Notes under the pieces: generated by a model
Database searches by the model: none
The model's input: only the letters and a program-made list of their open reading frames with translations
What the model was told of the DNA's origin: nothing
Source: a phage
Sequence record: PZ452614.1
DNA: 39,092 nucleotides
Strand: one strand, 5' to 3'
Shown: piece by piece, positions 7,806-39,092 of the stretch
Layout: the number at the start of each line of letters is the position of its first letter
How positions within the stretch are numbered: the stretch's first letter is position 1
Translations under genes and position numbers: made by a program

Positions 7806-7842
7806 TACCAGCGCGATAGCGCATTTTTTTACGCCTCAATAG

Positions 7843-7919: not shown

Positions 7920-7922
7920 ATC

Positions 7923-8267: not shown

Positions 8268-8328
8268 ATCGACGATCTTTTTAGTTATCAATGTAATCAA
8301 TAAGTTATGTGGATAAGCGAGGGTAAAG

Positions 8329-17427: not shown

Positions 17428-17429
17428 TC

Positions 17430-18125: not shown

Positions 18126-18133
18126 GAGAGGAA

Positions 18134-19126: not shown

Positions 19127-19177
19127 CGCCTGTTATTAACCTGTGGGTCGTAACAGACCCACTAATGGAGAAAGAAG

Positions 19178-19615
19178 ATGATCACCGACAAACTGTTGAT
19201 GTTCTCCGAAGCTCAGGCGGTTACGAATACCGCGGCTTCTACTGACGTAATCGATCTCGGTCCAATTGACGGAAAACGTCGTGATATCGGCGTGGGTTAC
19301 CCGCTTGAGTTTTGGGCGCTGGTTAACGAAGCCGCCACGGCAAGTGGTGAGGCAACTGTAAACATCCAGTTGCAGACGAGTGAGAATAACAGCTCATGGA
19401 CCACTATTTATGATAGTGGTGCACTGGCAAAGACCGCCCTGACAGCAGGTAAACGAGTTGTTTCTGCAAAGGTGCCTGCCGGTGTTCAGCGATATCTGCG
19501 TGTTAACTACTCCGTCGCAACTGGCCCACTAACGGCTGGCGAATTCACTGCTGGTATCAGTCTTGATGTTGATGCCAATACGCCGTATCCGATCCGCTCA
19601 AAAGTAACTGGTTAA
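19178..19615 (+). CDS. Hypothetical virion protein (145 aa)
   Basis: Shine-Dalgarno GGAG; position right after the capsid gene. Confidence 0.5.
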   Translation: MITDKLLMFSEAQAVTNTAASTDVIDLGPIDGKRRDIGVGYPLEFWALVNEAATASGEATVNIQLQTSENNSSWTTIYDSGALAKTALTAGKRVVSAKVPAGVQRYLRVNYSVATGPLTAGEFTAGISLDVDANTPYPIRSKVTG

Positions 19616-19625
19616 GGTGATATCG

Positions 19626-19961
19626 ATGTCAGGTGAGAAACCAAGATACCGCGTTCTGCGCCTCTCTCATATCCATAACACTCTGTGGCCGGAGGGGGCA
19701 GAAATCGAATACGAAGGTGAGCCTGGTAGCGCACTGGAACCTGTTAACGATGCAGCCAGACAGGCAAAAGCAAAGGTAGCAGGAAAGGTGTCAATGGCAG
19801 CAACCAGTACCAAAATCATCAACGATGTGTCAGATGATGGTGAGCTGGATAAGCTCCGTGAAGAGTACGAATTGCTCTTTAACGAGAAGCCACACCATAA
19901 CGCCAAAGCCGAAACGCTCCGCGAGAAGATCGCAGATAAGCGTAAAGAACTTGGCGTGTAA
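19626..19961 (+). CDS. Hypothetical protein (111 aa)
   Basis: ATG at 19626 after AGGTGA. Confidence 0.5.
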   Translation: MSGEKPRYRVLRLSHIHNTLWPEGAEIEYEGEPGSALEPVNDAARQAKAKVAGKVSMAATSTKIINDVSDDGELDKLREEYELLFNEKPHHNAKAETLREKIADKRKELGV

Positions 19962-19977
19962 GCCTCGCGGATCAGAC

Positions 19978-19999
19978 AAGGGGCTTCGGCCCCTTTATT
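19978..19999 (+). terminator. Terminator-like hairpin after the head gene block
   Basis: Stem aaggggc/gcccctt with loop ttcg, then TATTG. Confidence 0.5.
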
Positions 20000-20011
20000 G
20001 CAGGAGTGTAT

Positions 20012-20335
20012 ATGGAACTCGTAAACCTCAAAACCGGCACTGACAGCTACCAGGATGAGAGCGGAGAAACCAGAACTCGCGATGAATACCCGTGGGGGCT
20101 GTGCATCACTCTTAATAACGACACATTGAATAAGCTGAAGGCGCAACCTAAGGGCGTCGGAACGGAAGTGATGATAACTGCAAAGGCTGTTATTCGAGGC
20201 CTGTCTGCCAGAGAAACTAACGATGGCGTTAATCGCAGCGCCGATCTGCAGATCACTGATATGGCGATCGCTCCTGTTTCCGGGGATGTAGAAAAATCAG
20301 CGGCTGAAACTCTGTACGGTAACGGAGGTGAGTGA
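20012..20335 (+). CDS. Hypothetical virion protein (107 aa)
   Basis: ATG at 20012 after GGAG. Confidence 0.5.
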   Translation: MELVNLKTGTDSYQDESGETRTRDEYPWGLCITLNNDTLNKLKAQPKGVGTEVMITAKAVIRGLSARETNDGVNRSADLQITDMAIAPVSGDVEKSAAETLYGNGGE

Positions 20336-20940
20336 TGGCCTCTGTAGTAGAGATCTGTAATCGTGCGCTGTCCAATATTGGCAACAGCCGCAGCATTAAC
20401 AGCCTGACGGAAGCCAGCAAGGAAGCGGGGGAATGTTCGCTGCACTTTGAGGCCTGTCGTGATGCTGTGCTTTCTGATTTTGACTGGAACTTTGCTACCA
20501 AACGCGTGGCGCTTGCAGATACGAGCAATCCACCGCCTGACTGGGAATATGCGTACCAGTACCCGTCAGATTGTCTGCGCATTACTGAAATTATGCTTCC
20601 TGGTGTACGCAATCCAACAGCAGCAATGCGCGTTCAGTACGAAGTTGGTGCAGACACCAACGGAACAGGAAAGTTGATCTACACAGACCAGCCTCAGGCA
20701 TGGCTCAAGTATGTCTCTCGCGTTACAGATGTGAACATGTTTGATGCCATTTTTATGGAGGCGTTGGCCTGGCGTCTTGCGGCAGCTATTAACATGGCGC
20801 TGACTGGGAATGCAGACCTCGGTACGTTTGCCCTCAATATGTACAATCGCGTGATTCTTAGTGCTGGCTCGCATAGCCAGAATGAATCACAGGAACCACA
20901 GCCACCGGTTGATGAGTTTACCATTGCGAGGTTGTCCTGA
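20335..20940 (+). CDS. Putative head-tail adaptor / tail protein (201 aa)
   Basis: Position between head genes and the large tail protein; GGAGGTGA upstream. Confidence 0.45.
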   Translation: MASVVEICNRALSNIGNSRSINSLTEASKEAGECSLHFEACRDAVLSDFDWNFATKRVALADTSNPPPDWEYAYQYPSDCLRITEIMLPGVRNPTAAMRVQYEVGADTNGTGKLIYTDQPQAWLKYVSRVTDVNMFDAIFMEALAWRLAAAINMALTGNADLGTFALNMYNRVILSAGSHSQNESQEPQPPVDEFTIARLS

Positions 20941-23411: not shown

Positions 23412-23875
23412 TGATCTATGTTCAAATTATTCCCGCTACCGAAGAGCATCTTCAGATGATTTTGCCGGATGTTCGTCAGGCTGATATTGACGAACTGTAT
23501 GCGGTATCGCTGATGACTACCGAAGATGCGCTGCGCGTTGGTCTTCGCACTGCGACTATGGCCTGGTCAGGGTTCGCGAACGGAGAACTGGTAACCATGT
23601 TTGGTGTATCTCCGGCGTCAATGATCGGTGGCAATGGTACGCCCTGGCTGGTAGGAACCAGCCGTATTGAAAAATATCAGAAGACATTTCTGCGCCACTG
23701 CCGCCCTGTATTGCAGCAGATGCTGGCAGTTTATCCGCGCCTGGAAAACTACGTCGACGAGCGAAACCATGTTGCCAAAGCATGGCTGCACTGGCTTGGA
23801 TTCAGGCTTGAAGAAGCCGCGCCTTATGGTGCTCTTGGTCTTAATTTCCACAGATTTCACATGGAGAGAAAATAA
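23411..23875 (+). CDS. Hypothetical virion-associated protein (154 aa)
   Basis: ATGA-coupled; no confident family. Confidence 0.45.
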   Translation: MIYVQIIPATEEHLQMILPDVRQADIDELYAVSLMTTEDALRVGLRTATMAWSGFANGELVTMFGVSPASMIGGNGTPWLVGTSRIEKYQKTFLRHCRPVLQQMLAVYPRLENYVDERNHVAKAWLHWLGFRLEEAAPYGALGLNFHRFHMERK

Positions 23876-24420
23876 TGTGCGATCCGGTTATTGCTGGTGG
23901 CGCAATGCTCGCCATGAGTGGCATTCAGGCATACACCCAGTATCAACAGGGAAAGTATGCCTCGAAGGTTGCAGAAGCGAACGCAGATATAGCCACAGCT
24001 CAGGCAAATGATGCAATAAACAGAGGTAACGCTGAAGCTGAGCAACGACGCAGAGAGACCCGACAGCGGCTTGGTACACAGGCGGCGACAATGGGGGCTA
24101 CCGGCGCTGATTTATCTACAGGTAACGCGCTGGATATATTTGGCGACACTGCCCAGTTTGGCGCTCTTGATTCGCTGACGACGGTGAATAACGCGCAACG
24201 CGAGGCTTACGGTTATCAGGTCCAGGCTGCCAACTATAAAGCAGAAGCCAGTTCAGCCCGTAAACAGGGGAATGTGGGAGCAGCAACAACATTGCTCACT
24301 GCGCCTCTGAAGGCATACGGTGCGTACCAGATGTTTGGTGGGACGTGGAGTCCGTTTACTCAAAGCACTCCTGCGCCAATCGGGGCAGCAGCAGGAACCA
24401 GATTACCCGGAGGATTATAA
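23875..24420 (+). CDS. Putative internal virion protein (181 aa)
   Basis: Ala/Gln-rich; Shine-Dalgarno GGAGAG; position in the ejection-protein block. Confidence 0.5.
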   Translation: MCDPVIAGGAMLAMSGIQAYTQYQQGKYASKVAEANADIATAQANDAINRGNAEAEQRRRETRQRLGTQAATMGATGADLSTGNALDIFGDTAQFGALDSLTTVNNAQREAYGYQVQAANYKAEASSARKQGNVGAATTLLTAPLKAYGAYQMFGGTWSPFTQSTPAPIGAAAGTRLPGGL

Positions 24421-26933
24421 TGCCAGTCGTACCAACAGTATCCGGACGTCAGGTTGAGAGTCGTGGAGTTCAGTCAGCAGGCTTGCAGACGTTTTCTCAG
24501 CAAGGTATTGGTGATGCTTTTGTTCGGGCAGGGACAGAGGCAATTGATGTTTTGGGGCAGGCAAAACAGCGTGCCAATATCGCTCTGGCTCAGGAAGCAT
24601 CTCTTAACCTCAGTCAGATAAGCAGCGATCTGCTGAATAATCCTGAAACAGGATTGCTTAACCTGAAAGGGAAAAATGCTATTGGAAAAGGCCATGAGTA
24701 TACGCAGCAGTTTGATGCTCAGGTCGAACAACTGGCTATGTCGCTGCCGGATGAACAGGCTCGTAATGCTTTCATGCAGCAGGCGCAGCAGCAGCGCATT
24801 CAGTTCACTACGCAGGCCGGGCGACACGAGATAGGGCAAATTAATGCCTACGAAGAAGGCCAGTTTCAGGCGACACTGCTGAACAATGGTAAAAATGCCG
24901 CAGCATTGTATGGCGACAACGCCGCATACGTATTGGCTAACAAGCAAACTTTCCAGCAAATTGAGGAGTACGGTGTTGCACGTGGCTGGAGCAACGAGCA
25001 AATCCAGGCCAAGAAAATCGAGTTTAAAGAGAAGGTTGCTGATGCTGCATTGTCCCAGTGGTCGGCAAACAATGCGACCGCATTCATCCAAAGTAATGGC
25101 GAGTTAAGTGATACTGCTGCTGGAGCTCGCCGTGCTGTAGCAGATAGTGACTCTTCCGAGCGTGCCCGTGGCATACGCAACAATAACCCAGGAAATCTCG
25201 AATACAGCAAAACTAATCCGTGGGTAGGCCAGACCGGTGATGATGGTCGATTTGCTAAATTCGAAACACCTGAACACGGGATTCGTGCATTAGGGCGGAA
25301 CCTGATGTCGTATCAGAGGCAGGGTATTGATACCGTCAGCGAGATAATTAATCGCTGGGCACCGCCTGCTGATAAAAATGACACTATGTCGTATATCAAA
25401 GCAGTGTGCGAACAACTTGGCGTTTCTGCTGATGAGCCTCTCGATGCATCTAATCCTGATACCCTGAAGGCGCTTTGTGCAGCCATTATCCATCATGAGA
25501 ACGGTAGCCAGCCATACAGTGATCAGCAGTTAACTGCTGGTGTCAGTGCAGCACTTGGTTTATCAACAATTCCAACCAACACCAAACGCTATACCGGTAA
25601 TGCAGCATTCGATGCGGCATCTCCTGAGGCGCAGGCAAGTTTTATGCGACAGGCGGATCAACTGCGTCGGCAGCAGCAGGCTGAATATAAAACGATGATT
25701 GACAGCCAGGTTCGCGATGCGACAGCTGCGTATATGCGTGGCGTTGAATTTCCTAACCCACCTGGTGAGGCTGATTTTATTGCAGCTTATGGAGTAAGAG
25801 AAGGAAACCTGCGATATACCGAGTTCAGAAATACGCAAATCGCCGGACAGTATATAGGCTCTTTCCGCAACATGCCGACAAGCAGCATTACAGCATATGT
25901 TGAGCAATTACGCCCGGATACTGGTGAGACAGGGGAGGGTTATGCGGCACGAGCCGCTCTTTATGACAACGTTGTGTCGGCTGCAAGTCAGGTGATAAAG
26001 CAGCGACAGGCTGATCCTGTACAGTTCTCTCTTGCCGCCGGACAGGCAAAGCCTATCGACATGAGCAATAAGGATAACTTTGGACAGAGCGTTGCCTTGC
26101 GTGCTGCTCAGGTCAGTGACCTTGCTAAGTCATATGGCACTCCACTGACGTTCTTTTCCAAAGACGAGGCCAATCAGATCGGTGTTTTCTTTCGTGATGC
26201 GCCCGTTTCCCAACAGGCAGCATATCTCGATACCATCAGGCAGAGCACTGGTGGTGGGCAGGTGTATATGTCAGCACTACAGCAGATCAGTGCCAACGCT
26301 CCATCTGCTGCCGTTGCCGGGATACTGATGGATAAGCCAGGTGGTATTTTGGCAGAAAAAAACTGGTTTAATCCGGATGTTTCCGTGTCTCCAGAAACCG
26401 CTGCGCAGACAATTCTTGCTGGCGCGGCGGCTCGTAAAGGTACTGATGACGCGAAAGGTATTCCGATGCCTAAAGATGCTGATCTTCGCCTTGAGTTTTC
26501 TGACATGGTGAAGGATGCATTTGCTGGTGATGCTCAGGGGGCATCAATGGCATACGAGATCGCAAAGGACTATTACGCTGGTGTGATGGCGAAAAAAGGC
26601 GTGGTATCAGGCGAAATTGACAATGATATCTGGAAACAGGCTGTTAACGTAGCTACAGGTGGCGTGCATGACTATAACGGAATGGGGAATGTTCTTTTGC
26701 CGTGGGGAATGTCTGCAGAGCAATTCGATAAGCAGGTTAATCAGGCTTGGAATGAACAAGTTGTTGGCACAGGGATAAAAACACCGCCTGGTCAGTATGG
26801 TTTGCAAAGTTACGGCGATAGTCAGTACCTGGTGAAACTTGGTACTGGTTATCTGCTAAAAGATGATGGTTCTCCCGTTGTTCTTGATCTGACACAGAAG
26901 CGTCAGAGATTCTCCGGAGATATTCCGCAATGA
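24420..26933 (+). CDS. Internal virion / ejection protein (837 aa)
   Basis: ATG at 24420 after GGAGGA; large Ala/Gln-rich protein with a conserved-looking RGIRNNNPGN segment. Confidence 0.6.
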   Translation: MPVVPTVSGRQVESRGVQSAGLQTFSQQGIGDAFVRAGTEAIDVLGQAKQRANIALAQEASLNLSQISSDLLNNPETGLLNLKGKNAIGKGHEYTQQFDAQVEQLAMSLPDEQARNAFMQQAQQQRIQFTTQAGRHEIGQINAYEEGQFQATLLNNGKNAAALYGDNAAYVLANKQTFQQIEEYGVARGWSNEQIQAKKIEFKEKVADAALSQWSANNATAFIQSNGELSDTAAGARRAVADSDSSERARGIRNNNPGNLEYSKTNPWVGQTGDDGRFAKFETPEHGIRALGRNLMSYQRQGIDTVSEIINRWAPPADKNDTMSYIKAVCEQLGVSADEPLDASNPDTLKALCAAIIHHENGSQPYSDQQLTAGVSAALGLSTIPTNTKRYTGNAAFDAASPEAQASFMRQADQLRRQQQAEYKTMIDSQVRDATAAYMRGVEFPNPPGEADFIAAYGVREGNLRYTEFRNTQIAGQYIGSFRNMPTSSITAYVEQLRPDTGETGEGYAARAALYDNVVSAASQVIKQRQADPVQFSLAAGQAKPIDMSNKDNFGQSVALRAAQVSDLAKSYGTPLTFFSKDEANQIGVFFRDAPVSQQAAYLDTIRQSTGGGQVYMSALQQISANAPSAAVAGILMDKPGGILAEKNWFNPDVSVSPETAAQTILAGAAARKGTDDAKGIPMPKDADLRLEFSDMVKDAFAGDAQGASMAYEIAKDYYAGVMAKKGVVSGEIDNDIWKQAVNVATGGVHDYNGMGNVLLPWGMSAEQFDKQVNQAWNEQVVGTGIKTPPGQYGLQSYGDSQYLVKLGTGYLLKDDGSPVVLDLTQKRQRFSGDIPQ

Positions 26934-28732
26934 GTTACTTTGGCCTTAATCCAGTAAACCAGAATCAGCAGCTTGACGAAGCAGCATTAAATCCAGTTGG
27001 CTTTAACAGCGATGTTGGTTTTTTCGACAATGCTGTAGGAGCGGCATTGTCTGGTTTGTACTCCGGGCTGGTGGCAAAGCCAGATCAGTTGCTATGGGCA
27101 GGGATGGATAAAATCGTATCCCCGATTGCTCAGCTTGTTAACGAAAACACCTCGCTCAATGACACTTCAGTTTCATACATTGCTGAGCAGAGAAAACTAG
27201 CAGAGCAGCAGGTTAAGCGGCTGACGCCTGATGCCGCGACAACCGGAATCGCCGGGCAGGTCCTTTATGGGTTGTTCGATATGGGCGGGCAGGCTGTTGT
27301 CGGTACAACGCTCGGTGGTCCGGTCGGAGGTGCTGCGGCGGTAACTTCTCTACAGGGTTTTTCTGAGTTTGAACGGTTGACAGCACAGGGTGTTGATTTC
27401 AGGACGGCGCAGGAAGCGGGATTAGTGCAGGGTATTACTGCTGGTGCTGGAACACTGATCCCTATGAGCCTCGGGTTACGTGCTGGTGGTGCGCTGGCGG
27501 AAGGTGTGGCGGCTCAGCTTGCGCGGACGGGTGAAAGTTCAGTGCGACGCGCCGCAGCAACAGCAGTACGTGCAACGCCAGATATTGCCTATGCCGCAGG
27601 TACAAATATTGCGTTCGGTATGGCACAGCGTGGGCTTACTGCAAAAACGCTTCGTGATGGTGGCTATAGCGAAATGGCTAACCAGTATGATGTGTTGGAT
27701 CGACAGGCAATTGCTATTGATGCTGTTCTTGGGGTGGCGTTTGGTGGTGTCGGCAGATTTATTAACTCTCGAGGCGAGTCTACAAGCGCACCAAATTTTT
27801 CACCAGTTGATGTCGATGCTGCACTGGCGGCGAATGCCGCTCATCATGCTGAAATTGATATTGCTCCCGGCGTGCCGAGCAACGTGCTTTCGCGCAATTC
27901 TCACATTCAGGCTCTGCGAAAAGCTATGTCTGATGTTAGCCAGGGGAGACCTGTAGACGTTGCCAGCATTGTTGAGTCTGCATCTTTCAGTGAAATTCTA
28001 GGGCGCAAGAGTCTGCTGTCTCAGGCAGTTAATGAGGCTCTGTCATCTGTAGATGATGGAGTAACGGCGCGCGCTATAGAAAATCGGTTGCTTGAAGAAC
28101 AGGCCGCGCAGCTTTTGCCGCGTGGCGATAGACAGGTTTACCAGTCTGAAATCGCTAATAGCCAACGAATTATTGAAAATCTCACTGAACAGCGCGCACA
28201 AATTCTTGCAGAAGAGCCAACCGGTAGCGGTAAGGCTTTATCTCGTGCTCGATCAGATAAACAGGCCAGACTTCGCGATATTGACCAACGAATCCGGCAG
28301 GCACAAGAACGCCTGGAATTTTCTCGTAACGCGTTGGCACCGCATGAGCCTGGTGGTCAGTTTTTTGAAGCTCGAGCAGAACTGGCACGGCGACTGCAGG
28401 TAGAAAGTGAACTTAATGCTCAGGCTGTTTCATTCTATAAAACAGCAGATGTCAGGACGCCAGACGAAGTAGCTCCTTTTGAGCCTGATAAAATATTGCA
28501 ACAGGCAGAACAAAAAATGATGGCGGATCAGGCAGGAGATATTGATCTGCGCATAGCTGAAGACTCGCTGCTTGAATCACCTGACATGATAATTACCGTG
28601 CTGGATGATGATGGTAATCCACAATCGCGCAGCGCGCGTGAAGTACTGGATGAAGCGAACAGGGAAAGTGAGCAGGCAATACAGGATTCCAGCCTGTTTG
28701 ATGTCGCTGTGGCGTGTTTCTTGAGAGGTTAA
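26930..28732 (+). CDS. Internal virion / ejection protein (600 aa)
   Basis: ATGA coupling; Gly/Ala-rich N-terminal half and helical C-terminal half. Confidence 0.55.
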   Translation: MSYFGLNPVNQNQQLDEAALNPVGFNSDVGFFDNAVGAALSGLYSGLVAKPDQLLWAGMDKIVSPIAQLVNENTSLNDTSVSYIAEQRKLAEQQVKRLTPDAATTGIAGQVLYGLFDMGGQAVVGTTLGGPVGGAAAVTSLQGFSEFERLTAQGVDFRTAQEAGLVQGITAGAGTLIPMSLGLRAGGALAEGVAAQLARTGESSVRRAAATAVRATPDIAYAAGTNIAFGMAQRGLTAKTLRDGGYSEMANQYDVLDRQAIAIDAVLGVAFGGVGRFINSRGESTSAPNFSPVDVDAALAANAAHHAEIDIAPGVPSNVLSRNSHIQALRKAMSDVSQGRPVDVASIVESASFSEILGRKSLLSQAVNEALSSVDDGVTARAIENRLLEEQAAQLLPRGDRQVYQSEIANSQRIIENLTEQRAQILAEEPTGSGKALSRARSDKQARLRDIDQRIRQAQERLEFSRNALAPHEPGGQFFEARAELARRLQVESELNAQAVSFYKTADVRTPDEVAPFEPDKILQQAEQKMMADQAGDIDLRIAEDSLLESPDMIITVLDDDGNPQSRSAREVLDEANRESEQAIQDSSLFDVAVACFLRG

Positions 28733-28737
28733 ATTAA

Positions 28738-31212
28738 ATGAGACAGGAATGTATACAAGCGGTCCAGCAGGCGGCGCAGCGCACGTTAACAGCGCGAGAA
28801 ATACAGAACATTGAAGACCGCATTTATCGAAATATGCGCTCCATTGCTCGTGATGACCCGATGTCGTGGAGACAACTTTCCGAATCAGAGCGGCTATATC
28901 GTGCAGCACAATTGGCATCTGAAGAATTACAGCGAGAAGCGGCATTAAAGAAACGTCGTGTGGCCCTCACTATAGCCGCACGTCAGAGATTGGATAAATT
29001 TATCAATAGCTATCAAGGGGCTGATGGGAAACTTGGCGCTCTTAACCGTACTATTGCTTTTAATGCAGACGGTAAATCGAATTTCCTCTCTGTTGAGTCC
29101 AGAACAAAAGCCACTCGTGATTATGCATTGAGTCAATTGCAAGAGGCATTTGAAGCAGTTGATCCTCGCTTTTTTGGCCTGTTTGAAGATGAAGCTGGCG
29201 TGCGTGACCTGGTATATGAAATGCGAGGGCAAAATACTGGCAATGCTAAAGCAAGAAAAGGTGCTAAGGCGTGGAGAGAAGTGACAGATCTACTGCGCCG
29301 CCGGTTTAATGATGCTGGTGGGGACATTGGCTATCTCGAAAACTGGGGGATCCCTCAACATCATTCTATGGAAAAGGTTGGGGCGGTATCAAAGGATAAG
29401 TGGGTTAGCGATGTTATAGGTAAGCTGGATCGCAAATATTATATCCGAGCCGATGGACAACTGATGAACGATGCCGAGTTGTCTGCATTTCTTGGAGAGG
29501 CTTATAACACGATCGCTACTGGTGGGCTGAATAAGCTTACTGATACCGGAATGCGAATTTCCGGCGCACGTGCTAACCGTGGTAATGCATCACGACAGAT
29601 ACATTTCAAAGATGCAGATTCCTATCTGCAATATCAGCAACTTTATGGCGATCGCTCTCTATGGGAAATCATGGTCGGTCACTTGGAAGGTATCAGTAAA
29701 GATATTGCACTGGTGGAAACATATGGCCCAAACCCCGATCATGTTTTCCGCTCTCTTCTTGATCAGGTGAAGGCAGAAACGGCAACAGCTAACCCGAGTA
29801 AAACCGGTAAAGTCGAGCGGCTGGCGAACAACACAGAGAATCTGTACAACTTTATTTCCGGAAAGACACAGCCTGTAGCGAATCCGCACATCTCGCGATG
29901 GTCTGACAATATCCGCAACTGGCTGGTTGCCAGCAGACTCGGATCCGCGTTGCTGTCATCGTTCTCTGATCTTGGAACCATGTATCTGTCTGCGAAGGTT
30001 ACCAACCTTCCAATGAACCAGTTATTCCGCAACCAGCTTGAAGCTATGGACCCAACGAACCGTACAGAACTTGCGCGGGCGCGCCGCGCTGGTCTGGCGA
30101 TGGAATCTCTACTTGGCAGCGTTAACCGCTGGGCGATGGATAATATGGGGCCGTCAGTGTCTCGTTGGGCGGCAACGGCGGTAATGCGTGCCAGTGGGCT
30201 TACAGCATGGTCAGATGCGCACAAGCGCGCCTATGGCGTAACCATGATGGGAAGCCTGGGAGAAGTAGTGTCACGGACACCAGACCTTCGTAGCCTCGAT
30301 GATTCTGATTTTCGTATCCTGAAAAGCAAAGGGATTACTGACACAGACTGGAGCGTATGGAAGTTGGCGCAACAGGAGGACTGGGGGAACGGTAATAATA
30401 CGATGCTGACACCGGAAAGCATTATGCGTATCCCTGATTCAGCAGTTAAACATCTTGGTGAGCCTGAACGCGTGAAGTTTGAGGCAATGCGTAAACTGCT
30501 CGGTGCCGTAACTGAAGAAGTTGATATGGCTGTTATTACACCGGGAGCACGTGAGCAACTGATAACCGGTTCTGGTATTCAGCGTGGAACATGGAAAGGT
30601 GAATTAACGAGAAGTGTTTTCCTGTTTAAATCGTTCCCTATCTCGGTTGTTATGCGTCACTGGTCACGCGCTATGGGTATACCGTCTGCTGGTGGGCGTG
30701 CGGCATATATTGCGACGTTTATTGCCAGTACGACCATTCTTGGCGCTTTGTCGCAGCAACTTAACGACCTTGCGTCTGGTCGTAATCCTCGAGAGATGAC
30801 AGGAGGAGATGCCGCAAAATTCTGGCTTGGTGCTCTACTGAAAGGTGGTGGTCTTGGCCTTTACGGTGACTTTTTATTGTCAGATCACACTAGGTACGGA
30901 AGCGGCGCGCTGGCGTCGATGCTTGGCCCGGTAGCTGGTCTGGTTGATGACGTAGTGAAGATTGCTCAGGGCATACCGTTAAATGCTGTGGAAGGGAAGA
31001 ATGAGCAGACTGGTGGTGATCTGGTTAAGCTGGGGAAAGGTCTGATGCCAGGTGCGAATCTCTGGTACTTAAAGGCGGCTCTCGATCACATGATCTTTAA
31101 CCAGATGCAGGAGTATTTTTCACCAGGTTATTTGCGTAAAATGGAGCAACGTTCGAAGAAAGAGTTTAACCAGACATACTGGTGGCGACCACAGGATGTC
31201 ACTCCGCAATAA
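28738..31212 (+). CDS. Internal virion / ejection protein (824 aa)
   Basis: Size and position; Shine-Dalgarno GAGAGG. Confidence 0.55.
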   Translation: MRQECIQAVQQAAQRTLTAREIQNIEDRIYRNMRSIARDDPMSWRQLSESERLYRAAQLASEELQREAALKKRRVALTIAARQRLDKFINSYQGADGKLGALNRTIAFNADGKSNFLSVESRTKATRDYALSQLQEAFEAVDPRFFGLFEDEAGVRDLVYEMRGQNTGNAKARKGAKAWREVTDLLRRRFNDAGGDIGYLENWGIPQHHSMEKVGAVSKDKWVSDVIGKLDRKYYIRADGQLMNDAELSAFLGEAYNTIATGGLNKLTDTGMRISGARANRGNASRQIHFKDADSYLQYQQLYGDRSLWEIMVGHLEGISKDIALVETYGPNPDHVFRSLLDQVKAETATANPSKTGKVERLANNTENLYNFISGKTQPVANPHISRWSDNIRNWLVASRLGSALLSSFSDLGTMYLSAKVTNLPMNQLFRNQLEAMDPTNRTELARARRAGLAMESLLGSVNRWAMDNMGPSVSRWAATAVMRASGLTAWSDAHKRAYGVTMMGSLGEVVSRTPDLRSLDDSDFRILKSKGITDTDWSVWKLAQQEDWGNGNNTMLTPESIMRIPDSAVKHLGEPERVKFEAMRKLLGAVTEEVDMAVITPGAREQLITGSGIQRGTWKGELTRSVFLFKSFPISVVMRHWSRAMGIPSAGGRAAYIATFIASTTILGALSQQLNDLASGRNPREMTGGDAAKFWLGALLKGGGLGLYGDFLLSDHTRYGSGALASMLGPVAGLVDDVVKIAQGIPLNAVEGKNEQTGGDLVKLGKGLMPGANLWYLKAALDHMIFNQMQEYFSPGYLRKMEQRSKKEFNQTYWWRPQDVTPQ

Positions 31213-31221
31213 GGATGAGAA

Positions 31222-31362
31222 ATGATTGCTTTTATTCTTGTTGTGTTTGCGCTTGTTGCACTTGGCGTTATGAACCGTAAATGTATCATTGACTATGGCG
31301 AATTTGCTGTTGCAGTTATTTTGATATTATCTGGTGTAGCAGGGTACATAGGCTTGTCATAA
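31222..31362 (+). CDS. Small hydrophobic protein (46 aa, two predicted membrane helices)
   Basis: ATG after AAGGATGAGAA; followed by a palindrome and terminator; not in the supplied track. Confidence 0.4.
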   Translation: MIAFILVVFALVALGVMNRKCIIDYGEFAVAVILILSGVAGYIGLS

Positions 31363-31381
31363 CGTGAGCGTGACATGTCAC

Positions 31382-31406
31382 AGGCCGCTTTCGCGGCCTT
31401 GTTTTT
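31382..31406 (+). terminator. Rho-independent terminator ending the structural operon
   Basis: Stem aggccgc/gcggcct with loop tttc, then TGTTTTT. Confidence 0.65.
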
Positions 31407-31522
31407 AACGAATGCCGCCTCCGCCCGTCAGAAGAACCCTGCCTTGTCGTTGATGTACTCCGCGTGCGTCTGGATATCACGCAGGCATTTGCTCACACCG
31501 ACGATGTAGCAGAACATGGTGG

Positions 31523-32107
31523 TCAGCTCCGCCGCCGCGCCTGATACATCATGCCCGTCGTCCTGTTCATCAGCAGTGAGTGCTCCGTCAGGCCGAGAAC
31601 ACCAGACGGCGAATGAATCAGGCTACGGTAGCCGGGCTTCAGTGGGGCACTGTAGGTTTTGTTCTCTATCTTCATCGCCTGCATTACTGCTGACGCCGTG
31701 GCGTTGGCTACCTGGTCGGCAACCATCTTTATGCGTTCTTCCTGCGGGAGCGAGTTTTTAATGTAACTTCCGGTGCGGCGGATCTGAGGAAGAACCTCAC
31801 CTGTAACCCATTTACGAAAGCGGTAGGGGATAGTGCCTGGTGTCACCGCATCGCGGCAGCGGAGGATCAGTGTGTAGAGTCCTGACTCGGAGATGATGAT
31901 CGATTCTTGCTCACCGCCAGGGGTGTCGGTTGAAGCGACACCCTTCTCATCATCATCAAGTTTTCGAACAGCATCTCGATGGTTTGCTATGCCTATAGCC
32001 CGACAAACATCTGAAGCGATAAACCATGGCTCACCATTAATGACGATTACCCGTATATCGGCTTGGGATTCGAAAGAAAAAATGGACGTGCTTTTTGTAG
32101 CTGTCAT
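31523..32107 (-). CDS. Antirepressor with Bro-N domain
   Basis: …FSFESQADIRVIVINGEPWFIASDVCRAIGIANHRDAVRKLDDDEKGV… matches the Bro-N pattern; Shine-Dalgarno AAGGTAA. Confidence 0.8.
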   Translation of the reverse strand: MTATKSTSIFSFESQADIRVIVINGEPWFIASDVCRAIGIANHRDAVRKLDDDEKGVASTDTPGGEQESIIISESGLYTLILRCRDAVTPGTIPYRFRKWVTGEVLPQIRRTGSYIKNSLPQEERIKMVADQVANATASAVMQAMKIENKTYSAPLKPGYRSLIHSPSGVLGLTEHSLLMNRTTGMMYQARRRS

Positions 32108-32263
32108 AGTGGTTACCTTTTAGTCTGGTTAATCACCACTACCTACGCCAATCGGTTGGTGGTGAACTGTGCAGGGTTGGCGTAACCGGCTAAAAGGACC
32201 CGGCGCACCTTTCGGTGCCCCCACACAGCCCACCATAATACGAATGTGACCGTGCTATACGCA

Positions 32264-32284
32264 TAAAAAAACCGCTTGCGCGGT
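32264..32284 (-). terminator. Terminator-like hairpin inside the antirepressor operon spacer
   Basis: Stem accgc/gcggt with loop ttgc, followed on the minus strand by a 7-nt U-run. Confidence 0.45.
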
Positions 32285-32360
32285 GAATGCGCCTTTTAGT
32301 AACCCGGGACGCCAATCCCGGCACTGGATTTTGCCAGTGCCCGATTACTATGGCACAATA

Positions 32361-32401
32361 GGAGTGCTTATATTTACCTTTGCGGTAAATATAAGCACTC
32401 C
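32361..32401. repeat. 41-bp perfect palindrome (18-bp arms, 5-nt centre) with a TTACC-N5-GGTAA core
   Basis: GGAGTGCTTATATTTACC TTTGC GGTAAATATAAGCACTCC read directly. Confidence 0.9.
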
Positions 32402-32419
32402 ACTTGGTAATTGCAAACC

Positions 32420-32677
32420 TTATCTGGTTTGTTTTCGTAATTGTTCGGCACAATAGTCGAGATGTGTTTGCAGATCCCGCATGGACATCTGTGAGCTGGT
32501 GACGTAGTTAATCAGTGCAGTCAGTTCGGCAAGTGGGCCATCGACATTAAATCCATCCTTATCGAGATCCCGGAGTAATTTCATCAAGTGCGATCCCTCC
32601 ACCAGTGACCTGACGCCTCCCGGCGTGTGAATCCTTTCGGTAAATCCGTCTTCCAGTGGATAGTGATACTGCGGCAT
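32420..32677 (-). CDS. Hypothetical protein (85 aa), first gene of the LexA-box-controlled operon
   Basis: ATG at 32677 after GGAGAAG; LexA-like box 22 to 37 nt upstream. Confidence 0.55.
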   Translation of the reverse strand: MPQYHYPLEDGFTERIHTPGGVRSLVEGSHLMKLLRDLDKDGFNVDGPLAELTALINYVTSSQMSMRDLQTHLDYCAEQLRKQTR

Positions 32678-32696
32678 CTTATCTTCTCCATGCAAT

Positions 32697-32716
32697 AACT
32701 GTATAAATACACAGTA
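32697..32716. promoter_or_regulatory. Candidate LexA (SOS) box
   Basis: aaCTGTataaatacACAGta: CTGT-N8-ACAG, 17/20 match to the consensus TACTGTATATATATACAGTA. Confidence 0.7.
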
Positions 32717-32753
32717 GCAAATAATTTGTTTGCTATCCAGCACGTTTTGCGAA

Positions 32754-32820
32754 TCACCTGAAAGGTAATATCTGTTCGTATTTATGTGTTATCTATCCAT
32801 ATGTGGTTTTTCAGGTAATA
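32754..32820. promoter_or_regulatory. Divergent regulatory region: operator-like site and ATGTGGTT / GGTAATA motif before the tailspike
   Basis: TCACC-TGAAA-GGTAA 32754..32768; ATGTGGTT 32801..32808; GGTAATA 32814..32820. Confidence 0.5.
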
Positions 32821-32872
32821 GAATAACCGGATATGCGGCGCAACGGGTGCTGCGACTATCTGGAGATTTAAC

Positions 32873-35500
32873 ATGACGGTCTCAACCGAAGTTAACCACA
32901 ACGAATACACCGGTAACGGTGTTACGACATCATTTCCGTATACCTTTAGGGTTTTCAAGGAATCTGATCTGGTAGTACAGGTTGTTGACCTGAACGATAA
33001 CATCACTGTTCTGACGCTGGATACTGACTACACAGTAACCGGCGCAGGGGGATATGAAGGTGGTAATGTAATACTTGCAACAGCTCTGGCTAATGGTTAC
33101 CAGATTTCCATATCACGTGAACTGTCGGTTACGCAGGAAACAGATCTCCGTAACCAGGGGAAGTTCTTTGCTGAGGTGCATGAGGATGCGTTTGATAAGC
33201 TGACAATGTTGATTCAGCAGGTTCGTAGTTGGTTTAGTCTGGCGCTACGTAAGCCGTCATTTGTTGCTAACTATTACGACGCAATGGACAACTATATTCG
33301 TAACCTTCGTGACCCTGTAAGACCGCAGGATGCGGCTACAAAAAAATATGTTGATGGGGTCGCAGAAACAAACCTGAGCAGAACGCTACGAACCCCTGAG
33401 CCGATACCAGCATTGCCGGGAATTGAGCAACGTAAGAATAAGATTGTTGCAATGGATGATACTGGAAATCCGATAATGGTTTTGCCTGAATCTGGTTCGG
33501 CTACTGATGTAATGATCCAGTTAGCGGCAAATGATGGATTTAAGTTTATTGGTCAGTGCCCTGATATATTGACACTAAGAACAATAGAACCTGAAAAAAA
33601 TGGTCAAAGGATCACGTTGCGACAGCATACGATCGGAACTGGGCTTGGTGGAGGGGTATTCAGAGCTGTACTTGATGGAACTGGCTATACCGATGATGAT
33701 GGTGTTGTAATAAAAACAGCAGGTGGTTCTGTATGGTTACGGGTTAATGCAGATAAGGTTAATCCGTTTATGTTTGGGGCCACTGGCGTGGCTGATGATA
33801 CAGCAGCACTGCAAAAGATGCTTGAATGTGGCAGGGCGGCTGAGCTTGGCACAAATGTCTGGAAAGCATCTAATCTTGAGCTAAATAACAAGTCGTGTTC
33901 ACTATCTGGGTCTGGTCTACACGTTTCCAGGATAGAGCAAATATCTGGGGCAACAGGCGCGTTACTGACAATTACTCAGGATTGCAGCCTGATTTATTTG
34001 TCCGATTGTGGCCTGTATGGGGATGGAATAACTGCGGGAACAAGCGGGGTAACGATGGAGACAGGAAACCCAGGTGGGGCACCAAGCTATCCATTCAATA
34101 CCGCCCCTGACGTTCGTAGGGATCTTTACATTAGCAATGTTCACATTACAGGATTTGACGAGTTAGGATTTGATTATCCTGAAACGAATTTTTCCGTCTC
34201 AACGCATGGATTATTCATAAGAAACATTAAAAAAACCGGGGCTAAGATCGGAACTACCGATTTTACATGGACAAACCTTCAAATTGATACGTGTGGGCAG
34301 GAATGCTTAGTGCTTGATGGTGCTGGTAATTGCAGAATTATAGGTGCCAAATTAATTTGGGCTGGTTCAGAAAATGAAACACCATATTCAGGATTACGTA
34401 TTTCTAATTCACAAAATGTAAACATGACAGGAGTTGAGTTACAGGACTGTGCATACGATGGATTGTATATTAAAAATTCAACTGTTGCTATCAGTGGGTT
34501 GAATACTAACAGAAATAGTGCATCATCAAATCTGTCATACCATAATATGGTTTTTGAAAACAGTATAGTAACTGTAGATGGTTATGTTTGCCGTAACTAT
34601 GCTGCTACATCGCTATATGATCTAAATTCACAAGCCGGAAATGTGAGGTGTATTGGTTCCGATAGTACCGTATTGATAAATGGTATTTACGAGTCAGAAG
34701 TAAACAGCGAACGACTCATGGGTGACAATAATCTTATTCAGCCATATTCTGGTGATTTAATAATAAATGGCCTAAAAAACTATTATACATATACAGGAAG
34801 CGTAAAAAACAATATTCCTACATTTGACGGAGTCGTTACAACCGCAACATATGTAAGCGCTCCTTCGATACTAGGGCAAGGAAACATGCTTAAGTTAACG
34901 CAATCAAACAAGGATAAGTTATTATTTTCTGATAAAGTATCGAGACATGGGTGTACAATCGGCCTTGTTCTAATCCCGTCATTTACGGGTGCAACAACTA
35001 TGACAGCTTTCACTCTGGGGAGTGGATATTCGCCCTCTGGAAACTCTGCTGTTATGCAATTTATAGTTAACTCCAGTGGTGTGCAGACTATAGCAATATT
35101 ATTATCCGGTGATGGTATAACTCAAACGTTAACAAGCGATCTGACAACGGAGCAAGCGTTAGCTTCAGGAGGCGTATATCATTTTGCGATGGGATTCGCT
35201 CCAGGCCGATTATGGTGGTCTATTATTGATATAAATACCGGAAGGCGTATACGACGGGCGTACAGACAACCAGATCTTCACGCCGCATTTAATAGCATAT
35301 TCAACAGCGGAACATCTTCTATCACCGCATTTTCAGGACCATTAGCAGGTGATATTGCATGTGAAGGGGCAGGTTCGCATGTTTATGTTGGCGGTTTCTC
35401 ATCTGAGTCAGACTACGCAGCGAGCAGAATGTACGGATTATTTACCCCAGTAGACCTGGATAAACAATACTCATTCCGCACGCTGAACGGAAATATTTAA
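32873..35500 (+). CDS. Tailspike protein
   Basis: 875 aa; conserved-looking N-terminal domain, then repetitive Gly/Asn/Ser-rich beta-helix-like C-terminal part with lower GC. Confidence 0.8.
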   Translation: MTVSTEVNHNEYTGNGVTTSFPYTFRVFKESDLVVQVVDLNDNITVLTLDTDYTVTGAGGYEGGNVILATALANGYQISISRELSVTQETDLRNQGKFFAEVHEDAFDKLTMLIQQVRSWFSLALRKPSFVANYYDAMDNYIRNLRDPVRPQDAATKKYVDGVAETNLSRTLRTPEPIPALPGIEQRKNKIVAMDDTGNPIMVLPESGSATDVMIQLAANDGFKFIGQCPDILTLRTIEPEKNGQRITLRQHTIGTGLGGGVFRAVLDGTGYTDDDGVVIKTAGGSVWLRVNADKVNPFMFGATGVADDTAALQKMLECGRAAELGTNVWKASNLELNNKSCSLSGSGLHVSRIEQISGATGALLTITQDCSLIYLSDCGLYGDGITAGTSGVTMETGNPGGAPSYPFNTAPDVRRDLYISNVHITGFDELGFDYPETNFSVSTHGLFIRNIKKTGAKIGTTDFTWTNLQIDTCGQECLVLDGAGNCRIIGAKLIWAGSENETPYSGLRISNSQNVNMTGVELQDCAYDGLYIKNSTVAISGLNTNRNSASSNLSYHNMVFENSIVTVDGYVCRNYAATSLYDLNSQAGNVRCIGSDSTVLINGIYESEVNSERLMGDNNLIQPYSGDLIINGLKNYYTYTGSVKNNIPTFDGVVTTATYVSAPSILGQGNMLKLTQSNKDKLLFSDKVSRHGCTIGLVLIPSFTGATTMTAFTLGSGYSPSGNSAVMQFIVNSSGVQTIAILLSGDGITQTLTSDLTTEQALASGGVYHFAMGFAPGRLWWSIIDINTGRRIRRAYRQPDLHAAFNSIFNSGTSSITAFSGPLAGDIACEGAGSHVYVGGFSSESDYAASRMYGLFTPVDLDKQYSFRTLNGNI

Positions 35501-35507
35501 TATAGTT

Positions 35508-35532
35508 GGTTGTCATATTACACGTGACAACC
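35508..35532. terminator. Hairpin between convergent tailspike and acyltransferase genes
   Basis: 8-bp stem ggttgtca/tgacaacc, 9-nt loop, AT-rich flanks on both sides. Confidence 0.45.
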
Positions 35533-36529
35533 CAAATTTTCTTAAAAAAACTACGATGGCTAATGAAATTAAGAACACGATAAAAGAAAGAGGAATAACG
35601 ATAAACATCTCTGGATGGATCGAATATTTATCAAGCAAAAATCTCCTGAGTATGTCAATGATTAATGGATGGACAAGATAAATCCCTAGTGTGCAGGGAG
35701 AAATAAATTTCACTATGTGTAATATCGTTTTGTTTTTAACAGGGGTGTTTATCATGAACACCATAAAACATATTGCAGACATGGCAATAAACAAAGACGA
35801 GTTATCATAAAACATCTGGTTTACCGGTCCCCTGTAAACAGAAATATTCTTTGTTATAAAAGCGGTCGCAAACGTACATGCAGTCAGCATAATGGTTAAC
35901 ATTATTTTTGTTGAGTTTGTCATGTTAACTTGATTATCTAAAATTATCTTCCCTAGAAGCAAGTACACAGCAAGGCTGGAAAATATACTAACTTGAAATA
36001 GATTGTTGATATTTAAATTCAATCCAAGATATACATTTAATAAACTAAAGAATAAAAGAAGCATCCATAACCATACTAAAATTACAACATCTATTTTATT
36101 TGAGTGTAAATAGAATTTACTAAGTAATGGCATAATGATAACGAATCCAATGGCTGCATATAAGTACCACATATGATAGAATATCTGCGATCGAAAAAAT
36201 AAATTAAAAAATGATTTCACATCTATGGGGAAACTATTTACATGTGAACGATATAAGTAATATATCGCCGACCAGAAAAGTAGAATAATGAATAGCCGAT
36301 TTGCTCGTTTTAATGACGAATTCATATTTGTACTTTCTTTAATAAGCAAAGCCCCAGAAATCATAATGAATAACGGTACAGATATTCTGGTAAAAGATTC
36401 TATTATATTTAATATATCCCATCCTGATGAGCCTGTTTCATTCATACCTATAATTACAGAATGAAGAACAACCACCAAAAAGCAAGCAGCCACTCTAATC
36501 AACTCAATATTCAAATTCTTATCTTTCAT
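35513..36529 (-). CDS. Acyltransferase family 3 membrane protein (putative O-antigen acetylase, serotype conversion)
   Basis: 338 aa, multi-pass hydrophobic; N-terminal …ELIRVAACFLVVVLH… motif; markedly low GC. Confidence 0.85.
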   Translation of the reverse strand: MKDKNLNIELIRVAACFLVVVLHSVIIGMNETGSSGWDILNIIESFTRISVPLFIMISGALLIKESTNMNSSLKRANRLFIILLFWSAIYYLYRSHVNSFPIDVKSFFNLFFRSQIFYHMWYLYAAIGFVIIMPLLSKFYLHSNKIDVVILVWLWMLLLFFSLLNVYLGLNLNINNLFQVSIFSSLAVYLLLGKIILDNQVNMTNSTKIMLTIMLTACTFATAFITKNISVYRGPVNQMFYDNSSLFIAMSAICFMVFMINTPVKNKTILHIVKFISPCTLGIYLVHPLIIDILRRFLLDKYSIHPEMFIVIPLSFIVFLISLAIVVFLRKFGLSRVI

Positions 36530-36568
36530 GACCAGGTACGTTAAGCTGTATTATTTCAATAAATAATA

Positions 36569-36639
36569 TCACCTATCGGGTAATTTCGATAGGATCAATT
36601 CTAAGTTATTTTAACCATATATGGTTTATTGTGTATAAT
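36569..36639. promoter_or_regulatory. Divergent control region: operator-like site near the acyltransferase start and an extended -10 promoter for the lysis genes
   Basis: TCACC-TATCG-GGTAA 36569..36583; ATATGGTT 36621..36628; TGTGTATAAT 36630..36639. Confidence 0.5.
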
Positions 36640-36688
36640 GGACTCACCAACTAAGGGGGTTCTTTATGCACAGTAAACGGTGGTAATT

Positions 36689-37093
36689 ATGTCAGCAGGG
36701 CTAACCAGTGAGTCATTAAATCAGTGGCTTAGCATGGGGTCTCTTGCTGCAGTAATTGCAGGTGTTCCGCCAGAAGTTGCGCTTGGTGCTCTGGCTGGTG
36801 CGGTAATCTTTGTTACCTCGGCAGTTGAGTATCCAATCCGTCGCCGCGTGCTCCTGTCGTTGCTCAGCTTCCTCTGCGGCCTTCTCTTCTACAAACCCAC
36901 AGCGTCGATCCTTATCGGCTTTGCCAGCCTGATCCCTACCATCACTCAGGACTCTTTCGAGAAAGGGATCGTCTTCTCTGCTGGCGCATTCGTGTCAGCA
37001 ATAGTCGCAGTGCGCATTGGCATCTGGCTCTATCACCGTTCTGACAATCCACGCGAGTTAATTCCGGGGAGAAAAGACGATGACAACTCATGA
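36689..37093 (+). CDS. Holin (putative)
   Basis: Hydrophobic segments; ATG at 36689 after GGTGG; first gene of the lysis cassette. Confidence 0.6.
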   Translation: MSAGLTSESLNQWLSMGSLAAVIAGVPPEVALGALAGAVIFVTSAVEYPIRRRVLLSLLSFLCGLLFYKPTASILIGFASLIPTITQDSFEKGIVFSAGAFVSAIVAVRIGIWLYHRSDNPRELIPGRKDDDNS

Positions 37094-37388
37094 GCTGCTT
37101 TTGCTTATTGCTAATGCGGTTATCTGTTCATGTATAGCGATCCGCGTCGGTACGTTCCGGCGTAACGGTTCACAACATCGCAGATGGGGAGGGTGGATCG
37201 CTTACTTCCTCATTGTGGCCGCTGCCAGCATCCCGGTACGTGCCGCGTACGCTTTCTGGTACCACACGCCAATGACCGACGATCTTTCGGAGGTTGTCAT
37301 CAACGCTGTCATGCTTGCCGCCGTTCTGAAAACCCGCGGTAACGTCGTGCAGATTTTCAAAATAACGAGGTCTCAACATGGAGATTAA
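37080..37388 (+). CDS. Second holin-like membrane protein
   Basis: 102 aa with two or three hydrophobic segments; overlaps the holin stop. Confidence 0.5.
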   Translation: MTTHELLLLIANAVICSCIAIRVGTFRRNGSQHRRWGGWIAYFLIVAAASIPVRAAYAFWYHTPMTDDLSEVVINAVMLAAVLKTRGNVVQIFKITRSQHGD

Positions 37389-38007
37389 ACAATTCCAGCG
37401 AGCTGCTGGTATTAGCGAGGCGCTGGCCGCACGCTGGTTCTCGCATATAACTTCTGCGATGAAAGAGTTTGGTATCAGCAAAGCTGAAGATCAGGCAATG
37501 TTTATTGCTCAGGTCGGGCATGAGTCTGGTGGTTTCATCCGGTTGCAGGAGAATTTCAACTACAGTGTCACCGGACTGGCTAACTTCGTTCGGGCTGGGC
37601 GTCTCGCTCAGGGACAGGCCAACGCATTGGGTCGCCGCGCAGGCGAACCTCCATTGCCACTCGAGCGCCAGAGAGCGATCGCCAATCTGGTGTACAGCAA
37701 ACGCATGGGTAACAATGCTCCCGGCGATGGCTGGAATTACCGTGGGCGCGGGCTTATCCAGATTACCGGTTTGAATAACTATCGTGATTGCGGAAACGGT
37801 CTGAAGGTTGACCTGCTGGAGAGCCCTGAATTGCTGGCGCATGACGAATATGCGGCTCGTAGCGCAGCGTGGTTCTTTGCCAGCAAAGGATGCATGAAGT
37901 ATACCGGCGATATTGCACGTGTAACTCTGATTATCAATGGTGGCCGGAACGGCATCGACGACCGGCGCGCGCGGTACATCACTGCCAGTAAGGTGCTGGC
38001 GGTATGA
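37378..38007 (+). CDS. Endolysin, glycoside hydrolase family 19
   Basis: …FIAQVGHESGGF… and …NYRGRGLIQITG… GH19 motifs. Confidence 0.88.
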   Translation: MEIKQFQRAAGISEALAARWFSHITSAMKEFGISKAEDQAMFIAQVGHESGGFIRLQENFNYSVTGLANFVRAGRLAQGQANALGRRAGEPPLPLERQRAIANLVYSKRMGNNAPGDGWNYRGRGLIQITGLNNYRDCGNGLKVDLLESPELLAHDEYAARSAAWFFASKGCMKYTGDIARVTLIINGGRNGIDDRRARYITASKVLAV

Positions 38008-38486
38008 TCTGGGCATTCGCAAAAGCATACTGGAAACAGTTAATTATCGTGGTGATGCTTGCTGTTCTGGTCATATCCGGAATTGTTGCTTGGAATGTGC
38101 ACGGTAGCCGTCAGTACGACGCCGGGTATGTGCAGGCGAAGGAAGAGCGCAAAGCCGAAGATGAGAAAGTTCGTCAGCACTACGAACAGGAGAAAGCGAT
38201 CAATGAACGTGAAGCGCAGCAGAGGATCGACCAGGCGCGCAATGATGCTCTTGATGCTGCCGCTCGCGCTGGCCGGTTGCAGAAACAGCTCGTTGCCATC
38301 CGTGAGCAGCTCAGGCAGTATAACGCCATTGTCGGCGCTGGGACGTCAGCCGCAGACACCGGAGTTTTGCTTGCCGACGTGCTCAGCAAATCTCTCGAGA
38401 GAAACAGACAACTGGCAGAGTATGCTGACCGGGCAGCCGAAGCCGGAAGAGTCTGCGAAAAACAGTATGACACCCTGACAAGATAG
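38004..38486 (+). CDS. i-spanin (Rz-like)
   Basis: N-terminal membrane helix, coiled-coil periplasmic domain; follows the endolysin. Confidence 0.65.
   Translation: MIWAFAKAYWKQLIIVVMLAVLVISGIVAWNVHGSRQYDAGYVQAKEERKAEDEKVRQHYEQEKAINEREAQQRIDQARNDALDAAARAGRLQKQLVAIREQLRQYNAIVGAGTSAADTGVLLADVLSKSLERNRQLAEYADRAAEAGRVCEKQYDTLTR
38242..38478 (+). CDS. o-spanin (Rz1-like) embedded in the +1 frame of the i-spanin gene
   Basis: MMLLMLPLALAGC lipobox signal; Pro/Ser-rich mature part. Confidence 0.6.
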   Translation: MMLLMLPLALAGCRNSSLPSVSSSGSITPLSALGRQPQTPEFCLPTCSANLSRETDNWQSMLTGQPKPEESAKNSMTP

Positions 38487-38659
38487 CATGGCATTTTTCA
38501 TGGTACTGATTTCCGGTGACGGTATATAAAACGGTACTAAAAAAATGAAGTTTTGGAAAAATGTTATCACTCAATTGGTTATGGTTGCCGTAAATAATTG
38601 AGTGGGAATGATTAACAGCTAACTCATAGCAACTCATTCCTATTCAGATACTAATTTAA

Positions 38660-38690
38660 CCCTCTGTTTTTACAGAGGGTTTTTGTTTTT
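38660..38690 (+). terminator. Rho-independent terminator after the lysis cassette
   Basis: Stem ccctctg/cagaggg with loop ttttta, then TTTTTGTTTTT. Confidence 0.7.
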
Positions 38691-38746
38691 ATGTATTCAT
38701 TTCTATTCACTCTACACCATATTTTTCGGCGGTACAGGTGACGGTA

Positions 38747-38761
38747 TTACCTTAAAGGTAT
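38747..38761. promoter_or_regulatory. Operator-like site upstream of the integrase gene
   Basis: TTACC-TTAAA-GGTAT (one mismatch), 43 bp before the integrase start. Confidence 0.4.
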
Positions 38762-38803
38762 ACTCTCATACCGTCATGAAAATGGTTTTTATACGGGTGA
38801 ATT

Positions 38804-39092
38804 GTGCTTACCGATACAAAATTAAAAAACCTCAAGCCACAGGACAAACTGTACAAAGTTTCCGATCGTGACGGGCTGTATGTAGCTGTGCTTACGTCAG
38901 GTACGGTCTCGTTTCGCTATGACTACCGTATCAACGGTCGCCGCGAAACACTGGTAATCGGGCAGTATGGGCGTGACGGTATCAGCCTGGCAGAAGCGCG
39001 AGAAGAACTGATTGCTGCAAAGAAGCTGCTTAAAGCAGGCCAGTCACCGGCTGCGGCTAAACGTGACGGTATCAAAAAGATTCGTGGTGCCG
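38804..39092 (+). CDS. int: Tyrosine integrase, N-terminal part (runs off the window end; continues at 1..962)
   Basis: GTG start; …LTDTKLKNLKPQDKLYKVSDRDGLYVAV… matches the P4/IntA-family N-terminus; 96 codons plus 1 nt, which completes a codon with positions 1-2. Confidence 0.85.
   Translation, partial: MLTDTKLKNLKPQDKLYKVSDRDGLYVAVLTSGTVSFRYDYRINGRRETLVIGQYGRDGISLAEAREELIAAKKLLKAGQSPAAAKRDGIKKIRGA

Follow-up and report, generated by a model that had tools for sequence, protein, structure and literature searches.

A 39.1-kb phage sequence opened inside its integrase gene is very probably the complete, rotated genome of phage phiV10

The stretch of phage DNA analysed here, 39,092 nucleotides in length and called the window below, is almost certainly the complete genome of the published E. 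coli O157 temperate podophage phiV10 (Uetakevirus, epsilon15-like), rotated by 27,215 bp: a linear string taken from a circular map, with an arbitrary break in codon 97 of the integrase gene. The integrase reading frame that runs off one end of the window and resumes at the other results from the point chosen for opening the circular map and is not new biology, and the phage, its integrase, its attP core and its integration site at guaA are all already published. The value of the result is one of bookkeeping only: the window represents a phage genome that is whole and correctly closed, and its integrase is intact; annotation pipelines should therefore join its ends before gene calling.

Results

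The initial annotation had described an open reading frame that starts at GTG 38804 and leaves the window after 96 codons plus 1 nt, and a frame at the window start that completes the broken codon as GAG. Both descriptions hold when the frame is read. The 289 nt from 38804 to the last base, 39092, make up 96 codons and one further nucleotide, and an in-frame TGA at 38798-38800, two codons ahead of the GTG, means that no start further upstream is possible. Base 39092 (G) together with bases 1-2 (AG) gives GAG, which is Glu97 of the joined integrase, and the frame then stays open to the TAA at 960-962. One of the three frames is open across the end-to-start joint, and the other two are rich in stops. 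The joined product, which had been put at about 416 aa, is exactly 416 aa, and the same sequence is found uninterrupted in phiV10, where the annotated integrase (26927-28177) corresponds exactly to window 38804..962.

The joint itself recurs in sequences other than the window. A 1,200-nt query that spans it is 100% identical to the contiguous internal stretch 26616-27815 of phiV10, and the same identity is seen with the O157 typing phages 9 and 10. A 100-mer across the joint is present in a prophage of E. coli O157:H7 TT12B (NZ_CP038494.1), where an integrase gene of 1,251 bp (416 aa) is annotated, and more than 119 IMG/VR contigs contain an intact 38-mer across it. The identity of the joint in many independent records rules out a chance open frame, and the continuity of the frame across the window ends is not an accident; with the ends joined, the integrase is intact. 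Direct terminal repeats of at least 8 bp between the window ends were searched for as a sign of circularity, and none was found, so that any such sign would have been trimmed off.

The joined protein has the domain order expected of an arm-binding tyrosine integrase. Pfam PF13356 (Arm-DNA-bind_3) matches residues 2-87 with 72 bits against a cut-off of 27; the stretch at the window's 3' end codes for this arm domain. It is followed by PF22022 (Phage_int_M) at residues 113-190 and PF00589 (Phage_integrase) at residues 204-375, both above their curated cut-offs. A search of the PDB matched the N-terminus to the CP4-like integrase N-domain structures 3ju0 (E 3e-12) and 3jtz (E 4e-11), and the middle part to 2kj8, the core-binding domain of the CPS-53 integrase. 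These matches uphold the earlier description of a P4/IntA-like N-terminal domain followed by a catalytic domain in the normal order. The same search returned the WD-40 protein 2ymu, a match that we rejected as an artefact of summing over repeats, with no significant single stretch.

In an alignment to lambda Int (1z1b), residues R238, K265, H335, R338 and H361 fall on the lambda catalytic residues R212, K235, H308, R311 and H333. Y370 lies just past the end of the printed alignment, nine residues after H361, which is the spacing of lambda Y342 after H333. The P4-like integrase model of NCBIfam, PRK09692, matches residues 2-392 with 146.6 bits against a cut-off of 434, which indicates that the joined integrase is related to this model and is not a member of it. 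Judged by its domains and residues, the joined product is an intact arm-binding tyrosine integrase with arm-binding, core-binding and catalytic domains in their normal order.

Beyond the integrase, every one of the 39,092 bases of the window aligns to phiV10, and the window contains no host DNA. Window 11878-39092 equals phiV10 1-27215 at 100% identity; window 1-11877 equals phiV10 27216-39104 with 0 substitutions and one 12-bp gap. The gap, the sole difference between the two sequences, is one copy fewer of AACCAGTCATAT at 6616-6644, in the repeat region of the replication gene. Near-identical nucleotide sequence over the full length, by which a genome is placed in the species Uetakevirus phiV10, is thus what we observe, and the full colinearity with phiV10 bears out the initial view that the window is a whole phage genome. 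The term "circularly permuted", which that view also included, can be applied here solely to the linear string, as a rotated form of the reference map.

The state of the attachment site shows which configuration of the phage was recorded. When identity to the TT12B prophage is walked from each side, agreement with the attR side ends at 38613 and agreement with the attL side reaches back to 38597; the two stretches overlap by 17 bp, and ATTGAGTGGGAATGATT is therefore the att core. The core has the same sequence as the end of host guaA, its last four codons and stop (IEWE*), together with the 2 nt that follow, and in attL it forms exactly that end of the gene. In the window, the lysis-gene side lies to the left of the core and the int side to its right, so the window holds attP, whereas in the integrated TT12B copy the two flanks are about 39 kb apart as attR and attL, adjoining yfgI and guaA. 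The attL and attR of TT12B share the core, in keeping with integration of this species at the guaA 3' end through ATTGAGTGGGAATGATT. An empty attB was also reconstructed, and 4,571 of 5,426 complete E. coli genomes contain it; these sequences lend indirect support to recombination between attP and attB. The same 17-mer has been published as the attP of phiV10, epsilon15 and ZX5, and the guaA 3' end as the integration site (PMC9782041). In ZX5, whose integrase is 98% identical, the core likewise lies 190 bp upstream of int, and evidence from PCR and Sanger sequencing points to the same reaction (PMC9782041).

Features surrounding the core are collected in Table 1. The arm repeats coincide with the Int-binding sites annotated in epsilon15 and show no change between the two phages, in a region whose overall identity is 88%; binding of Int to them would be expected from this comparison. 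The stem of the hairpin between the core and int, CCCTCTGT TTTT ACAGAGGG, differs little from the stem of the host's guaA terminator just right of attB, CCCTCTGT TACT ACAGAGGG. The phage thus appears to carry homology to the region downstream of guaA beyond the 17-bp core, with unrelated sequence in between (38658-38690 compared with the host). Comparison of attP, attL and attR shows that integration leaves the guaA coding sequence unchanged and places the look-alike terminator behind it, while the native terminator shifts to the attR side. The hairpin may accordingly be suspected of functioning as a terminator that would replace that of guaA after integration. The small AlpA-like protein listed in Table 1 is the candidate excisionase, and probably the directionality factor for excision.

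Table 1. Features of the integrase gene, attachment site and other loci, in window coordinates
Feature	Coordinates	Strand	Remarks
Integrase gene, 5' part	38804..39092	+	GTG start, codons 1-96 and first base of codon 97; arm-type DNA-binding domain; equals phiV10 int 26927-27215
Integrase gene, 3' part	1..962	+	last two bases of codon 97 to TAA 960-962; core-binding and catalytic domains with R238, K265, H335, R338, H361, Y370; equals phiV10 int 27216-28177
attP core ATTGAGTGGGAATGATT, 17 bp	38597..38613	+	once in window, 190 bp upstream of int; breakpoints relative to TT12B attL/attR fall here
Putative arm-type integrase-binding repeat GGTGACGGTAT, P arm	38515..38525	+	direct repeat D2; homologous to "integrase" protein_bind feature of epsilon15
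Putative arm-type integrase-binding repeat GGTGACGGTAT, P' arm	38737..38747	+	direct repeat D2; matches epsilon15 feature
Inverted copy ATACCGTCA of putative arm-type repeat, P' arm	38768..38776	-	inverted repeats I5 and I6; conserved in epsilon15
Predicted intrinsic terminator hairpin AACCCTCTGT/ACAGAGGGTT with T run	38658..38690	+	between core and int; inverted repeat I4; phiV10 annotates terminator at 26781-26813
AlpA-family small DNA-binding protein, 82 aa	2209..2457	-	Pfam PF05930, E 3e-5; phiV10p36 annotated as AlpA family
Iteron-like tandem repeats in replication initiator gene (6208-7023)	6513..6644	+	12-bp difference from phiV10 lies here
Start point of phiV10 record and terminase genes	11878..14064	+	small terminase 11918-12592, large terminase 12589-14064; conventional opening of the map

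The replication initiator gene, which carries HTH/DnaT domains, contains an array made of an 18-nt unit (2.8 copies), the 24-nt unit CCCAAAAACGGGATGTTGAATGAT (2.6 copies) and the 12-nt unit AACCAGTCATAT (2.4 copies), and this iteron-like array is probably the origin. Its copy number varies by isolate and always in frame, the window being 12 bp shorter than phiV10 and 18 bp shorter than the TT12B prophage. Both ends of the typing phage 10 record in GenBank fall within this array and carry a terminal duplication of 130 bp (window 6508-6637).

Among the packaging genes, the small terminase belongs to PF03592, and the phiV10 record notes a similarity of the large terminase to P1 PacB; these are at most indirect hints of headful packaging with permuted virion DNA. 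A Pfam scan gave no match for the large terminase, and a literature search brought up nothing usable on how epsilon15 and phiV10 package their DNA. Separating the terminase genes from the portal gene is a phage-encoded tRNA-Arg (anticodon TCT; 14730-14806, minus strand), which the annotations of typing phage 10 and of the prophages include and the RefSeq feature table of phiV10 does not. The O-antigen O-acetyltransferase gene (Acyl_transf_3; 35513-36529, minus strand) is the serotype-converting and superinfection-immunity gene of phiV10. It is oriented opposite to the flanking tailspike and lysis genes, and one O157 contig holds a truncated form of 219 aa. The tailspike protein is found in many assemblies (254 collection blocks), and the locations listed for it were all on large contigs of chromosomal origin.

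Two further genes differ in length between the window and the TT12B prophage. The minus-strand reading frame 2507-4267 (586 aa) has, near 3463, a run of four A on the coding strand in the window and phiV10 against three in TT12B; the extra homopolymer base fuses the frames of a PD-(D/E)XK nuclease and RecT, annotated in phiV10 as a "RecE-RecT fusion". In TT12B and in E. coli FDAARGOS_1301 the nuclease and RecT are two overlapping genes, and the fusion could be real or a sequencing error that was carried over. The Bro-N (antirepressor-like) gene at 31523-32107 on the minus strand encodes 194 aa in the window and phiV10 and 231 aa in TT12B and other O157 contigs, because of a 16-bp deletion (TAACTGGTTCAGCAGA) in the window, seen as a difference at 31565. 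Five consecutive substitutions are found at 32379-32383, in the intergenic region upstream of the tailspike gene, where the window reads TTTGC and TT12B reads GCAAA, although the genomes are otherwise 99.9% identical; the two are mutual reverse complements, as a tiny inversion would give.

Discussion

Our data indicate that the window records the circular, attP configuration of the phage and not a single integrated prophage. An intact attP has phage DNA on both sides, host DNA is absent from the ends, and continuity across the joint is found in independent sequences, which is what a complete circular genome should display. All that speaks for a single prophage, in which the continuous frame would be a coincidence or an artefact of assembly, is the general expectation that temperate phage sequences in genome data are mostly prophages. 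On the other side, the window holds attP, neither attL nor attR, and no host sequence; in the integrated state, as seen in TT12B, int is intact and adjoins guaA; and the joint is the same in many independent records. The presence of attP in place of attL and attR refutes a single integrated prophage, whose probability we consider negligible, and agrees with the argument of the initial annotation that such a prophage would have int at one end only, next to attL.

Two other origins would also yield lysis genes, attP and int in an unbroken row. One is a slice of exactly unit length from a chromosomal tandem double or multiple lysogen, in which the middle joint reads lysis-attP-int and the slice starts and ends inside int in frame. 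Such arrays do exist: E. coli FDAARGOS_1301 has the order guaA-int...lysis-attP-int...lysis-yfgI, with two copies of a related K1-specific phage, and a contiguous chromosomal lysis-attP-int stretch occurs in 6 of 5,426 E. coli genomes. To produce the window, however, the cut would have to be of exactly 39,092 bp, with neither overlap nor host DNA, at an arbitrary codon of int, and such a cut is expected from a circularised contig or a rotated record and not from a prophage caller. Prophage calls in IMG/VR mostly begin at the start of int, and the joint is found at 272-309 in many loci. The window is moreover 100% identical to phiV10, which was derived from virions, whereas the nearest chromosomal copy, that of TT12B, differs by 15 substitutions and 3 indels. 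We regard the tandem slice as highly improbable. The other origin is a free circular phage episome in the host cell, either excised or replicating DNA or a plasmid-like carrier state, in place of virion DNA or a rotated entry. Related Uetakevirus genomes are present as 41,027-bp circular "plasmids" with lysis-attP-int order in two complete E. coli assemblies, the longest contig carrying the tailspike gene is 20-50 kb in 89 collection blocks, and ZX5 lysogens spontaneously release 10^7 PFU/mL of phage (PMC9782041). An episome is nevertheless a special case of the best explanation, which the sequence by itself cannot separate from circularly assembled virion DNA, and in the phiV10 annotation we saw no genes for plasmid partition or maintenance. 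We consider this origin unlikely, although less so than the tandem slice. A more specific proposal is somewhat less likely than an episome in general: a phiV10-type phage would persist in its host as a plasmid-like circular episome, as pHL15EC-2 would, and the 12-bp unit lost beside the iterons would perhaps be linked to such a lifestyle.

The sequences that came up in this comparison have features of their own. The circular records pHL15EC-2 and its twin (NZ_CP079771.1 and NZ_CP079768.1) come from ducks and were entered as plasmids of E. coli; the label probably hides phage DNA that had been excised or was replicating. Closed circles of related phages with the lysis-attP-int order of the window are thus on record. 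The FDAARGOS_1301 array (NZ_CP070111.1, 4835373-4917666) is a double lysogen, located between guaA and yfgI, of a related Uetakevirus with an endosialidase (K1-specific). The head peptidase gene is frameshifted in one copy, IS2 has inserted into the other, and these differing lesions imply either divergence since the duplication or an array that is stabilised by mutual complementation.

Taking the window as the rotated phiV10 genome, the recombination that it reflects can be proposed by analogy with lambda- and P4-type integrases. The N-terminal domain of Int would bind the arm repeats, and the central and catalytic domains would bind the core, so that Int could bridge arm and core sites and swap strands inside the 17-bp identity. 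After recombination of attP with attB, int would adjoin guaA at attL and the lysis genes would adjoin yfgI at attR, and the guaA coding sequence and a terminator would stay intact. A circle in which attP is restored would arise by excision, in which the AlpA-like protein probably assists, or when virion DNA circularises after injection, and this circle would be the configuration that the window records.

The closest known system is phiV10 itself (NC_007804.2/DQ126339.2; Uetakevirus phiV10; 39,104 bp), with the same genome, gene content and order, integrase, attP and O-acetyltransferase. The two differ in length by the single AACCAGTCATAT copy and in the point at which the map is opened, the phiV10 record starting 40 bp upstream of the small terminase gene and the window at phiV10 27216, inside int. 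Typing phage 10 is 99.96-100% identical to the window. The TT12B prophage, located between guaA and yfgI, is 99.87% identical over 38.6 kb and has an intact 416-aa integrase; it is opened at att, whereas the window is opened inside int, and it has separate nuclease and RecT genes, a longer Bro-N gene and 18 extra bases in the iteron region. Salmonella phage epsilon15 (AY150271.2) is about 82% identical in nucleotide sequence over the joint region. It shares the 17-bp core, the position of the terminator, the GTG-started integrase and the arm-type sites, where GTGACGGTAT is annotated as integrase binding, but differs from the window phage in host, tailspike and serotype-conversion genes. The likeness to lambda Int and to P4-type (CP4-57 IntA-like) integrases lies in the three domains, the catalytic residues and an attP with arm-type and core-type sites. 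The sequence similarity to lambda Int is distant (E about 1e-4), and a further difference is that the window phage integrates not into a tRNA gene but at the 3' end of guaA, which codes for a protein.
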